Below, one piece after another: positions 5,332 through 8,930 of a stretch of DNA of 26,394 bases. This DNA is from a virus (taxonomy: Duplodnaviria; Caudoviricetes), in IMG/VR virus record IMGVR_UViG_3300027697_000060, positions 1 through 26,394 of that record; one strand, written 5' to 3'. A model generated the notes under the pieces. The model saw only the letters and a list, made by a program, of their open reading frames with translations, did not search any database and had not been told where the DNA came from. Position 1 is the stretch's first letter. Each line of letters begins with the position of its first letter. Made by a program: the position numbers and the translations under genes.

Positions 5332-5414
5332 AAATCTTAACCACCTCATGATAAAATATTAATAACCTGATAGTAATTAGTGAAACTTGGGGTGGTTATT
5401 TTAAACTATTATTT

Positions 5415-5747
5415 ATGTCAATAAATTTTAACAGTACAAGATGTAACTATTGTGAAAGAAAATTTACTGAAAGTAATTATAGAACAAAAGAACACATTGT
5501 ACCATTATCTAAAGGAGGTAATAATTATTTTGAAAATTTGATATGGATATGTAATGAGTGTAATAATTACAGAGGCAATAAAGATTTGCCATATTTTTTT
5601 AATCAGATAAATAATGTTCTTAACAATAATAGAACTATTAAGATTAAAATTTATACATACAATAGACAAGATTTGCAAAATATGGTTAAAAACTTATCAT
5701 ATTATAAAAACAAAAGTTATGAAACAAGCAATAATATTTTTATATGA
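5415..5747 (+). CDS. HNH endonuclease (McrA-like, Zn-binding)
   Basis: CNYC...TKEHIVPLSKGG...NLIWICNECNNYRG. Confidence 0.85.
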   Translation: MSINFNSTRCNYCERKFTESNYRTKEHIVPLSKGGNNYFENLIWICNECNNYRGNKDLPYFFNQINNVLNNNRTIKIKIYTYNRQDLQNMVKNLSYYKNKSYETSNNIFI

Positions 5748-5835
5748 ATTAGCAAAGTTTATAGTAATATCAATACCACTAGCAATATTGCTATTTGTAA
5801 CATTAACAATAATTAGTAAATTCAAGAATATATGA
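5719..5835 (+). CDS. small membrane protein (38 aa)
   Basis: MKQAIIFLYELAKFIVISIPLAILLFVTLTIISKFKNI; ATG 5719 preferred over 5614, which lies deep inside the HNH gene. Confidence 0.55.
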   Translation: MKQAIIFLYELAKFIVISIPLAILLFVTLTIISKFKNI

Positions 5836-6044
5836 TGGAGATTGCAGGATTAGAGAACTCAGTACCAGTGAGGATGATTTATGTTGACGACAAAAGTGAA
5901 GTATTGTTTAAATCTTTAGCTCATGCAGCAAGGAATACAAGAATAACACAAGACTCAATAAAGAAATCACTTAATCCATTACTAAAGAAGAAATTTAAGC
6001 ACAATAATAGAGATGTTATTTTTAGGATAGTTAAGAATATTTAG
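5832..6044 (+). CDS. NUMOD1-like small DNA-binding protein
   Basis: FKSLAHAARNTRITQDSIKKSL resembles the NUMOD1/IENR1 HTH. Confidence 0.55.
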   Translation: MMEIAGLENSVPVRMIYVDDKSEVLFKSLAHAARNTRITQDSIKKSLNPLLKKKFKHNNRDVIFRIVKNI

Positions 6045-6052
6045 TATCTTTG
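6045..6052 (+). promoter_or_regulatory. Bacteroidota-type -7 promoter element TATCTTTG
   Basis: Matches TAnnTTTG; lies immediately upstream of a structured leader. Confidence 0.6.
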
Positions 6053-6145
6053 TTCTGCTATGTACGAGATAGCATTAAGAACTTTTTTTGCCCAAAGAGG
6101 CGTTGGAACTCGTACTTCCAGCAAATCTGCGGGCGTTTTTATTTT
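6052..6145 (+). ncRNA. putative structured leader RNA with kissing loops / attenuator
   Basis: Hairpin TGCTAT-GTACGAG-ATAGCA (6056-6074) and hairpin GTTGGAA-CTCGTAC-TTCCAGC (6102-6122) have exactly complementary loops; outer stem GCCC/GGGC then a T-rich tract. Confidence 0.6.
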
Positions 6146-6664
6146 ATGAACAATTTACAAGACCCATTTATCTTATCTATTGATGAAGAAGGGCACATTT
6201 ATGATTGCAAATCATACTACAGATTATTAAGTATTAATGAATTAATAGCACTTAAAATGGCTATTGATAAAACTTACAATCATTATTTAAATGATAATCT
6301 AACTGATGAAGAAATTTATGACAGGAATGTAGATAGTTCCGAAATTTATCAGCAAAGATTTTATGAATATGCTAAAAGTATACCTAAAAGGCAAAAAGAT
6401 GATAGAGGGTATATATACTTAATGAAGGATAATAGAAATGGTCTTATTAAAATAGGCTATTCAAAATACCCTGAATTTAGAGAAAAAACCCTTCAATCAG
6501 AAGTACCTGATATTGAAATGATATATTATAATTTTGGTAGAATGAAATTAGAAAAGGAATTACATAAATCATTTAATCATAAGAGAATAAGAGGCGAATG
6601 GTTTGATTTAAACAATAATGATATTGAACAAATTAAAGTGCATATAGATGGAACATCATTTTAA
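6146..6664 (+). CDS. T5orf172/MUG113-like GIY-YIG domain protein
   Basis: GYIYLM...LIKIGYS..P..REKTLQ...E..LH..F...RIRGEWF; start reassigned to ATG 6146, downstream of the leader. Confidence 0.8.
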   Translation: MNNLQDPFILSIDEEGHIYDCKSYYRLLSINELIALKMAIDKTYNHYLNDNLTDEEIYDRNVDSSEIYQQRFYEYAKSIPKRQKDDRGYIYLMKDNRNGLIKIGYSKYPEFREKTLQSEVPDIEMIYYNFGRMKLEKELHKSFNHKRIRGEWFDLNNNDIEQIKVHIDGTSF

Positions 6665-7334
6665 TACTGATCACGCAGTAAAATACGGAATAGAAGAGGC
6701 TATTGTTATTAATAACTTATTCTTTTGGATAACTAAAAATAAGGCTAATAGAAAGCATTACTTAAACGATAGAACATGGACTTACAATACTTACAAGGCT
6801 TTTAGTGAGATTTTCCCATACTGGAATGAACACAAGATTAAAAGAATATTAGATTCATTGGTTAATCAAAGTGTAATACTAAGAGAAAACTATAACAAAA
6901 GTGGTTATGATAGGACTTGTTGGTATGCTTTCAGAGATGAAATGTCGTTCTTAAACAATTGCAATATCCATATTGCAGAAATGCAAAATGGAAGTAACGA
7001 AAGTGCAACACCTATACCATATAGTAATACAATTACTAATACATCTATAAATAAATCTATAAATATATCGTTTGATACATGGTGGGATTTATATGATAAG
7101 AAGGTTGGTAGTAAAACTAAACTAGAAAATAAGTGGAATAAGCTAACTGACGATCAAAGAACACAAGCTATTAAACACACTAAGGAATACAAGATTGCAC
7201 AACCTGATAAACAATATAGAAAGAATCCTGATACATACTTAAATAACGAGTCATTTTATGATGAGATAATTAAGCCAAAGGATTTTAATCAAGTACCTAC
7301 AAATAAAATAACTACACAAATAAAACTAAAATAA
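6648..7334 (+). CDS. phage replication initiator / replisome organizer
   Basis: N-terminal wHTH-like region (AVKYGIEEAIVINNLFFW..., TWTYNT), low-complexity linker, C-terminal FDTWWDLYDKK...PDTYLN domain; upstream of DnaB. Confidence 0.7.
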   Translation: MEHHFNTDHAVKYGIEEAIVINNLFFWITKNKANRKHYLNDRTWTYNTYKAFSEIFPYWNEHKIKRILDSLVNQSVILRENYNKSGYDRTCWYAFRDEMSFLNNCNIHIAEMQNGSNESATPIPYSNTITNTSINKSINISFDTWWDLYDKKVGSKTKLENKWNKLTDDQRTQAIKHTKEYKIAQPDKQYRKNPDTYLNNESFYDEIIKPKDFNQVPTNKITTQIKLK

Positions 7335-7335
7335 C

Positions 7336-7596
7336 ATGACACCAAAACAAAAAGCTAAAGAAATAGTTTATAAAATGTTTGCAGATTGGCTACAAATACC
7401 TTATGAAGCAGTAGAATATCATCTAGAAATACCTGGATTTACAATAGTTCAAGAATGGTATAGCACTAAACATTGTGCATTAATAGCTGTAGATGAAGTA
7501 TTAGAAGCAACTAAGAAGTATGATTATACTTTAGGTCCTAAACCAAGCTATAATGATTATTGGTTAAAGGTAAAATACGAAATAGAAAAACTATGA
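7336..7596 (+). CDS. hypothetical protein
   Basis: ORF between the initiator and helicase; ATGA coupling to the helicase. Confidence 0.7.
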   Translation: MTPKQKAKEIVYKMFADWLQIPYEAVEYHLEIPGFTIVQEWYSTKHCALIAVDEVLEATKKYDYTLGPKPSYNDYWLKVKYEIEKL

Positions 7597-8930
7597 TAGC
7601 TATAAACCTACCAAAAGCTTTAGATATTGAATCTAACATACTTGGGGCATTGCTTTTAGACAAAAGGACTATCCCATTGGTTATAGGTCATCTAAAAACT
7701 GACATATTCTACGATCTAAAGCACCAAAAAATCTTTAACGCTATTAAGGAAATGTATGATAGTAACATATCTATAGACCTTACTACTGTAGCTCAAAAAC
7801 TTTCCCAAGATAAGGACATTCAAGATGTTGGTGGAGCTTTTTACCTATCAAAGTTAACTGATAATGTAATCTCAACAGCTCATTTAAACACCCATATTGA
7901 GATTGTTATTGAGATGTATAAGAAGCGTGAAGCTTATAAAGTGCTTAGAATAGCTGAAAGTCAATGCTTAGATAACGATAGTCAGTCATTAGACCTTCTA
8001 TCTGACCTTAATAGTCAACTATTATCTATCCAAGAATATGGCAATATCTATGAAAAAAGCATAACTGATGTAGTTATGGCTATCAACTTTGCTAGGGATT
8101 TAGCAAGTAATGGTGAACTTTTAGGATTTAATACAGGATTCCAAGAACTAAACCAAACTATAGCAGGTTGGTGTAAACCTGACCTATGTATTATAGCTGC
8201 TAGACCTGGTGCAGGTAAGACTGCAATGATGCTTTCTAGTGTTTATCACTTAGCTATCCTAAATAACGTTCCTACGGCTATTTTTAGCCTCGAAATGAGC
8301 TCCGAACAGCTTGTTGAAAGGTTAGAGTCAATAACAAGTCAAGTGCCCTTAAAACGCCTTAGGACGAATAATTTGAATGACTATGAACGTAAGCTACTTT
8401 TAAAGACAGATGACAAGATAATCACAGCACCCATCTACATAGAGGATACTGGAGGAATCAGTATCTCACAACTCAGAGCTAAGGCTACTATTCTAAAGCA
8501 GAAGTATGGTATTAAGGTTATATTCCTAGACTATCTACAACTTATGAGTGGACAAGGCAAACAAAACCAAAACCGAGAGCAGGAAGTAAGTTTTATAAGC
8601 AGAAGCCTTAAAGCCTTAGCCAAAGAGTTGGAAGTACCAATCATTGCTTTATCTCAGTTATCTAGAAAGGTTGAAGAACGAGCTGATAAACTACCAATGT
8701 TGTCTGATCTTAGAGAGTCAGGTAGTATCGAACAAGATAGCGACATAGTAATAATGTTAATGCGTCCTGCATATTATGAGATGACTGAACCAGTAGAAAT
8801 TGATGGCAAAGAGTATGATCCTAAAAATCTTGTTATAGTCAAAGTTGAAAAAAATAGACATGGACCGACAAAAAATATGGCAGTAAGATTTATAGGTGAA
8901 ACAATAACATTCGAAGATTATAAATTATAA
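7593..8930 (+). CDS. dnaB: replicative DNA helicase DnaB
   Basis: Walker A AARPGAGKT, FSLEMS, IFLDYLQLM, LSQLSR, SDLRESGSIEQDSD, KNRHG; start at ATG 7593 overlapping the upstream stop. Confidence 0.95.
   Translation: MIAINLPKALDIESNILGALLLDKRTIPLVIGHLKTDIFYDLKHQKIFNAIKEMYDSNISIDLTTVAQKLSQDKDIQDVGGAFYLSKLTDNVISTAHLNTHIEIVIEMYKKREAYKVLRIAESQCLDNDSQSLDLLSDLNSQLLSIQEYGNIYEKSITDVVMAINFARDLASNGELLGFNTGFQELNQTIAGWCKPDLCIIAARPGAGKTAMMLSSVYHLAILNNVPTAIFSLEMSSEQLVERLESITSQVPLKRLRTNNLNDYERKLLLKTDDKIITAPIYIEDTGGISISQLRAKATILKQKYGIKVIFLDYLQLMSGQGKQNQNREQEVSFISRSLKALAKELEVPIIALSQLSRKVEERADKLPMLSDLRESGSIEQDSDIVIMLMRPAYYEMTEPVEIDGKEYDPKNLVIVKVEKNRHGPTKNMAVRFIGETITFEDYKL

Follow-up and report, generated by a model that had tools for sequence, protein, structure and literature searches.

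The leader hairpins of T-even homing-endonuclease genes, which are tied to the nuclease gene, mask its ribosome site, and the P4 CI RNA is a short RNA from the head of an operon with phage-specific recognition letters in its loop. A comparable operon-head short RNA, whose loop recognition letters vary between phages, is described for P1/P7 c4 (PMC12197685). In the corrinoid riboswitches an intramolecular kiss between L5 and L13 in the 5' leader is coupled to the choice between terminator and antiterminator (PMC10327014), and in 'tug-of-war' antitermination a non-overlapping structure of the nascent RNA, described as a ligand-bound aptamer or a separate upstream structure, suppresses the adjacent intrinsic terminator (bioRxiv 10.64898/2026.06.17.733018). 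The RNA I and RNA II of ColE1 interact through 7-nt loops that are fully paired. In pT181/pIP501 and the IncI rep leaders, attenuation or a leader pseudoknot is described as controlling a replication initiator (PMC8383071). HK022 put consists of two promoter-proximal stem-loops in the early transcript that act on RNA polymerase without a protein; its described features include long-range antitermination and binding to the zinc-binding domain of beta' (PMC9378689, in which neither 'kissing' nor 'pseudoknot' occurs).

The locus analysed here lies in the window, by which we mean the whole stretch of DNA under study, a 26-kb phage record of 26,394 nucleotides that was all of the genome covered. 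Its parts are the following:

5832..6044, plus strand: 70-aa gene with no family match, as a rule the gene next upstream of the leader in this phage group
6045..6052, plus strand: TAnnTTTG promoter-like box of the Bacteroidota -7 type (TATCTTTG)
6053..6141, plus strand: swappable segment, exchanged as a block in near-identical phages
6056..6074, plus strand: hairpin 1, with a 6-bp stem (6056-6061/6069-6074) and the 7-nt loop GTACGAG (6062-6068)
6075..6089, plus strand: linker of 15 nt, A/U-rich, unpaired in the consensus structure used
6090..6134, plus strand: hairpin 2, terminator-like, with basal GCCC 6090-6093/GGGC 6131-6134 and middle AGA/TCT
6102..6122, plus strand: upper part of hairpin 2, a 7-bp stem (6102-6108/6116-6122) with the loop CTCGTAC (6109-6115)
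6135..6145, plus strand: U-tract (GTTTTTATTTT) between hairpin 2 and ATG 6146, adjoining both
6146..6664, plus strand: T5orf172/MUG113 (GIY-YIG-like) gene, 172 aa
6648..7334, plus strand: phage replication initiator, 228 aa (phrog_11233, that is PHROG 11233, E 1.8e-33)
7560..8930, plus strand: DnaB-like replicative helicase (DnaB_C, E 1e-88), for which a start near 7593 is more probable than TTG 7560

Like the corrinoid riboswitch, this leader has an apparent intramolecular kiss that may be coupled to termination, but it holds no aptamer (at about 90 nt there is no room for one, and there is no Rfam match), the kissed hairpin is itself the terminator-like hairpin, and the kiss is a perfect 7-bp one whose letters change freely. 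In contrast to 'tug-of-war' antitermination as described, docking in the proposed leader would be on the terminator's own loop, with no ligand apparent. The fully paired 7-nt loops recall ColE1, and the place before an initiator recalls pT181/pIP501 and IncI, but here both loops are on one strand, the carrier is a phage and not a plasmid, and there is no SD pairing; the IncI/IncB type of rep pseudoknot is also set apart by the SD of SD-type members, which is outside hairpin 2, and by the lack of a conserved leader ORF. As in c4 and P4 CI the leader stands at the head of an operon and its loop letters vary, but it has no Rfam match, no repeated downstream targets and no conserved leader ORF. 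The phages carrying it also differ from P1 and P4 in that no integrase or repressor family was found among the 68 proteins of related phages in a Pfam scan, of which 67 come from two complete genomes (67 of the 100 ORFs called, those omitted being mostly in the structural blocks). In the case of put, specific bases are described as necessary, whereas the stems and loops of the leader are freely replaced. Finally, it is not a classical attenuator, since there is no conserved paired antiterminator or leader peptide (the leader frame is open in 9 of 55 members).

The window contains the two-hairpin pattern with complementary 7-nt loops a single time, none of 60 dinucleotide shuffles contains it, and a model built from relatives likewise finds one copy of the leader in the window. 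The first-pass annotation had described the two loops as a perfect 7-nt reverse complement and had placed hairpin 2 inside the GCCC/GGGC stem, with a further stretch directly before ATG 6146; the coordinates of all these elements are correct, and the hairpins fold. Hairpin 1 has a folding energy of -5.0 kcal/mol and hairpin 2 alone one of -19.2 kcal/mol (z -3.22), both being present in the minimum-energy fold of the leader (z -2.16), and the linker partly pairs with the U-tract in the single-sequence fold. The labels given to the genes (T5orf172, initiator and helicase) agree with the matches to T5orf172/MUG113, PHROG 11233 and DnaB_C. That the leader belongs to no known Rfam family was also borne out, as a search of Rfam 15 at the gathering threshold gave no match in the window or in 20 member loci, and positions 5900-6300 gave noise only (E 6.4 and 8.5).

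The promoter box proposed at the same time, which corresponds to a Bacteroidota -7 motif (PMC10620806), stands by its place and fixed spacing in relatives but not by the motif alone, for which the window has 36 matches where chance would give 43. In 93 of 96 relatives the end of a permissive form of the box lies 9 nt ahead of loop 1; in a subfamily with a longer hairpin 1 it lies 17 nt ahead (32/32 members), so that the distance tracks the length of hairpin 1. Several SD-type members have sigma-70-like boxes just upstream of hairpin 1 (by eye). Because the box spacing follows hairpin 1 and the sigma-70-like boxes adjoin it, the RNA is likely to start at the base of hairpin 1, a few nt past the box. 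The evidence as to the host appears limited to the Bacteroidota-type box. No cultured phage covering the locus was found; among 120 pattern matches in GTDB, both loops were in hairpins in one (a Treponema MAG, L498, before a 45-aa ORF), and the model R1, run without a positive control on 96-150 of thousands of candidates, matched 0/5 and 0/41 genomes. As for the 70-aa gene upstream of the box, it resembles by eye a 65-aa protein of another genome (G003, L833:1847-2041) that has a weak NUMOD1 match (E 5e-4); it may be a free-standing DNA-binding domain derived from a homing endonuclease and, as such, a candidate regulator of the promoter.

The first-pass annotation had proposed covariation of the loops in relatives as a check, and this was carried out without bias toward the loops, relatives being searched by the stem scaffold with the loops left unspecified. 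An upstream hairpin whose loop is the exact reverse complement of that of hairpin 2 was present in 96 of 96 viral records, in 69/69 records of a metagenome set and in 32/33 of a second-subfamily set, the single miss having no hairpin 1 and looking unrelated; these sets are redundant and overlapping, and hold 35, 41 and 12 unique sequences. Complementarity is hence conserved, and pairing is kept by compensatory change. A search with the two loop words only returned 120 viral loci, with both words on separate hairpin loops in 13, in all of which the CTCGTAC hairpin is followed by a U-rich run and a start codon; adding a T-run to the loop words gave 69 of 120 loci, and members made up 2 of the 63 loci of an initial search with a hairpin-2 pattern. 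Of 58 loci anchored on the initiator protein, 46 have the leader (six loop pairs among them), and the other 12 are cut off upstream (5) or distant matches (7). The scaffold of the SD phages yielded 11 of 120 loci with 8 loop pairs, although detection here itself required complementarity, and 19 further strong hairpins from this search looked unrelated by eye. All sets together comprise 16 seven-nt loop pairs and one 6-8-letter variant, and in 16/16 pairs loop 1 starts with a purine followed by G or T and has A at its sixth position (R-K-N-N-N-A-N). The allele GTACGAG recurs over many lineages, also in the loop-blind sets. The known YUNR loop motif was considered for the leader loops and rejected, only its U being conserved.

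In an alignment of 33 sequences, some unpaired cells of which reflect alignment register, double changes are seen at 6 of the 7 kiss pairs, and the kiss scores 0.544 for covariation, against 0.184 when shuffled and at most 0.142 when slid. Extension of the kiss beyond 7 bp would be possible in 0/14, 0/28, 0/9 and 5/18 cases (the last belonging to one allele). The closing pairs are almost always pyrimidine-purine on hairpin 1 and purine-pyrimidine on hairpin 2, and it is because of these types that the match halts at 7 bp. At the level of sequence, then, the loops have the full 7-nt complementarity with exclusion of the stems that characterizes the ColE1-type 7-bp kissing complex. With the orientation taken from the downstream ORF, G-U pairs outnumber A-C pairs by 21:8, 39:1 and 20:0, an excess that indicates the plus strand as the folded one; the loci L070 and L556 were excluded by hand as non-members from this strand analysis and from that of the U-tract. 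We regard it as very probable that the two loops pair in the RNA, folding of single-stranded DNA being a much less likely alternative. Covariation by itself appears to fit pairing in cis and between molecules alike. Of 24 distant loci, model R1 recovers 8 (E up to 1), and of the SD-type ones it recovers none; its reach being so limited, we take the distant and SD-type loci to share the design and perhaps also the descent.

Members with a short hairpin 1 have a linker of about 15 nt, whereas those with a long hairpin 1 have a short linker, and the long form often carries a 3-nt bulge 5 bp below the loop (many SD-type members). We infer that this trade-off between hairpin length and linker fits intramolecular pairing. 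The hairpins of the SD-type look-alikes are near-perfect, with 17-18 bp; hairpin 2 of the Bacteroidota type has two internal loops and an interrupted U-tract.

As had been suggested, the leader heads a phage replication operon, and does so across the initiator-anchored loci, where it lies directly on Rep in 36 of 46, an HNH or T5orf172 gene standing between in the other 10. The tie to T5orf172 suggested with it turned out to be incidental: that gene is an optional insert, which relatives may lack or may have exchanged for an HNH gene. The broader set of 38 loci has a nuclease as first gene in 21 and Rep in 11, with replication operons recognized by family match or position in 24; in 7 of its loci a nuclease is ahead of terminase, methylase, AAA_24 or RNA ligase. 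The design is thus found mainly before Rep, with homing-type nucleases as further companions. Four near-complete genomes have a single copy of the leader each. A partial genome (L604) has two copies with different loops, the second about 1.2 kb upstream of a GTACGAG copy before Rep:

L604:204-309: second leader copy, loop GTAGGAT, preceding a 382-aa ABC-ATPase/GNAT protein

Among the replication initiators of L766-L816, the C-terminal part is common and the N-terminal domains are unrelated and exchanged. In the window, an 86-aa gene between initiator and DnaB (7330-7593) is missing from the contigs of runs X1 and X3. The same contigs lack 5401-5719, which makes the HNH gene at 5415-5747 an optional insert as well; upstream of it is a plain long hairpin (about 5338-5397) with no kissing leader.

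The leader is also exchanged between close relatives. The locus L767 is 94% identical to the window upstream and 97% over T5orf172 and Rep, against 49% across 6053-6136, which is no better than shuffled sequence (48%), and its leader has a different loop pair and an inverted basal helix. A contig of run X1 has 91 other letters in place of 6054-6141; the matches in RNA runs are contigs only, all with shares of at most 0.16. The same T5orf172 gene was found behind different loop alleles, and since loop alleles combine with several first genes, the loop code is not tied to the type of Rep or nuclease. Adopting a conservative view, the swaps by themselves are no proof of selection, because the genes around the leader are mosaic too.

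Several observations concern the U-tract. At least 6 T occur within the 9 nt after hairpin 2 in 31/31, 20/20 and 11/14 unique members (the queries containing no T), compared with 2.4-3.3 T per 9 nt after hairpin 1, and most other early gene starts in the window are A-rich and not T-rich. Hairpin 2 is closed by G-C pairs and directly followed by the U-tract, as in an intrinsic terminator; a simple sigma-70 terminator scan, which needs an unbroken stem, did not call it. The U-tract following hairpin 2, with the SD of SD-type members lying beyond it, therefore points to a terminator rather than to masking of a ribosome site, and we consider termination at the U-tract likely. For the Bacteroidota-type members, in which hairpin 2 ends 10-13 nt before the AUG, read-through is needed, because essential genes begin within this distance and leave no room for a second promoter. 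In the members no conserved paired antiterminator, leader peptide, third pairing site or antisense box was found, and we take the kiss as the read-through element because it is the sole conserved extra feature.

The explanation that we prefer, and to which we give somewhat less than an even chance, is that the leader is a ligand-free transcription attenuator of the replication operon in which the kiss promotes read-through, this direction being the part that we infer. The first-pass annotation had offered an attenuator or a translational switch; loop-loop pairing, through covariation, and the terminator-like hairpin 2 speak for the former, while a translational switch is not supported as a conserved function, because the ribosome site of the SD-bearing look-alikes comes after the U-tract, outside the hairpin. 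Hairpin 2 and the U-tract would form the predicted intrinsic terminator. With a transcript starting at the base of hairpin 1, loop 1 would be ready before loop 2 leaves the polymerase, and folding of the upper stem of hairpin 2 would then allow the 7-bp kiss to form in cis. The bent and bulky kiss, together with a nearly taut linker, might then compete with closure of the basal GCCC/GGGC in the exit channel, which is the weakest step; with base closure so hindered, the polymerase would continue into initiator and helicase, and transcripts that do not kiss would end at the U-tract as an RNA of about 85-90 nt. Suppression of intrinsic terminators by upstream RNA structure has been described (bioRxiv 10.64898/2026.06.17.733018). 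In a toy model, the angles and stiffness of which are assumptions and whose bend is near that of the ColE1 7-bp kiss (about 120 degrees; PMC8457670), a kiss combined with complete closure of hairpin 2 is 1.6-4.3 kcal/mol costlier than one combined with the upper stem only. As this penalty is far below the roughly 13 kcal/mol of the lower helices, any effect of the kiss must be kinetic. A competing 3-bp helix in the nascent folds is confined to one allele group, the ATGCGAC and ATTGCAG alleles having no small competing helix (by inspection). The effect could also extend to translation in Bacteroidota-type members, given the distance of 10-13 nt between hairpin and AUG.

An extension of this scheme, which we think unlikely on present indications, is that the free loop 2 of the terminated short RNA forces termination by capping loop 1 on nascent transcripts that share its code. 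In such a short RNA the closed hairpin 2 would strain its own kiss and so leave loop 2 free to act in trans.

The opposite sign for the kiss is unlikely to the same degree. Here the kiss would stabilise hairpin 2 and strengthen termination or protect a short RNA, with read-through coming from a protein or from loss of the kiss. In the corrinoid riboswitches the kiss is described as stabilising the kissed hairpin, P13 (PMC10327014), and a like effect on hairpin 2 would therefore favour termination, against the sign of our model; the two internal loops and interrupted U-tract of the Bacteroidota-type hairpin 2 speak for this sign too. The SD-type look-alikes, however, keep the kiss on near-perfect hairpins of 17-18 bp, which would seem to need no stabilising and which we count for the read-through model, and no antiterminator-type family appeared among the 68 Pfam-scanned proteins, many of which have no family.

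We consider a post-transcriptional role unlikely as well. In it the compact kissed structure would restrict the access of ribosomes to the first gene or guard the 5' end against RNases, and the U-tract would belong to the region where translation starts. The closeness of hairpin 2 to the AUG in Bacteroidota-type members fits this role, but in the SD-type the SD follows the U-tract and the AUG is mostly 14-21 nt from the stem, neither loop matches the SD or the start region, and the A-richness of most other starts in the window argues against a U-tract as a start signal.

It is improbable that the leader is the companion of a homing nuclease, damping nuclease output, with its place before Rep a relic of insertion and loss and its swaps effected by homing. 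Nucleases do come first in more than half of the broader set, and 7 of these are followed by a non-Rep gene. In contrast to this reading, and to the T-even nuclease hairpins, 36 of the 46 initiator-anchored leaders have no nuclease gene after them, and the leader is absent from all 6 further nuclease genes of the window and of two complete relatives; the single copy per near-complete genome and the same T5orf172 gene behind different alleles speak against it as well.

Similarly improbable, in our view, is that the loops pair between molecules, as dimers, rings or a short RNA on a nascent one, or that a protein reads the kissed shape irrespective of sequence. The block swaps between near-identical phages and the two copies with different loops in L604 would suit either form, and a kinked one-strand tile with the ColE1 7-bp kiss is described as dimerising (PMC8457670). 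Against this, the hairpin/linker trade-off fits a geometry in cis, as does the bulge of 3 nt located 5 bp below loop 1, the recurrence of GTACGAG in many lineages disfavours a strict specificity code, and the mosaic neighbourhood weakens the argument from swaps.

The antisense or C4-type layout that had been suggested found no support, with no minus-strand TAnnTTTG box within 150 nt downstream in any of 55 unique members (TAnnTTTG being the only box covered, and power being low since the background is 2 of 57 bins), and no third site, as 83 of 92 members have no extra 6-nt loop copy (with about a third of the rows strand mis-set, and L445 and L556 excluded by hand as non-members) and 7 of the 9 extra-copy matches are one coding hexamer in one allele. 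A leader ORF from TTG 6050 was rejected as not conserved, and so was a DNA operator or iteron, the leader having no repeat family and its stems covarying as hairpins with strand bias.

The leader is a real, uncatalogued kissing-loop leader, and in its proposed working it is like a kissing-loop-coupled attenuator. We found no title or abstract describing it, subscription journals being outside the scope of the search, and 'kissing' has no match in the supplements of PMC2864571. The anonymous candidates DNAVirus_187, _4859, _1375 and _8377 of Fremin et al. 2023 (PMC10690425), of 49-106 nt, come mostly from freshwater viruses, with the exception of _1375, which is from rhizosphere samples, and are placed upstream of DUF1376/DUF4373, HTH_36/Phage_rep_O, T5orf172 or HNH, families that are also found behind the leader. 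Compared through the supplement descriptions only, in which DNAVirus_187 has about the length of hairpin 2 alone, these candidates may include hairpin 2 or the whole leader; 'kissing' does not occur in the main text of that paper.

These results describe a putative regulatory RNA design that is common in freshwater-type phage records and stands at the rate-limiting step of phage DNA replication, with no aptamer, detected antisense gene or fixed sequence, and with 7-bp tip-to-tip pairing on a terminator-like hairpin in their place. At about 90 nt, with at least 16 natural loop pairs and block swaps, it makes the sign of a tertiary contact on a terminator loop directly testable, and orthogonal parts could be drawn from its loop alleles. 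Should the short RNA act in trans, phages would have in it a new means of counting or excluding each other; capping of loop 1 in trans would then amount to a protein-free dosage feedback on phage replication and to a sequence-coded interference between co-infecting, apparently non-integrating phages, from which the block swaps would be an escape.

Two other regions of the window deserve mention. The stretch 272-2284 encodes a pair of amidoligase and class-II glutamine amidotransferase, with an Asp-rich GAT repeat near 755-790. The non-coding stretch that follows (2284-2775) has a strong hairpin with a T-run (2307-2343), three repeats spaced by 14 nt (2519-2567) and CAAAAAC-rich repeats (2594-2741), and is a candidate origin or control region.
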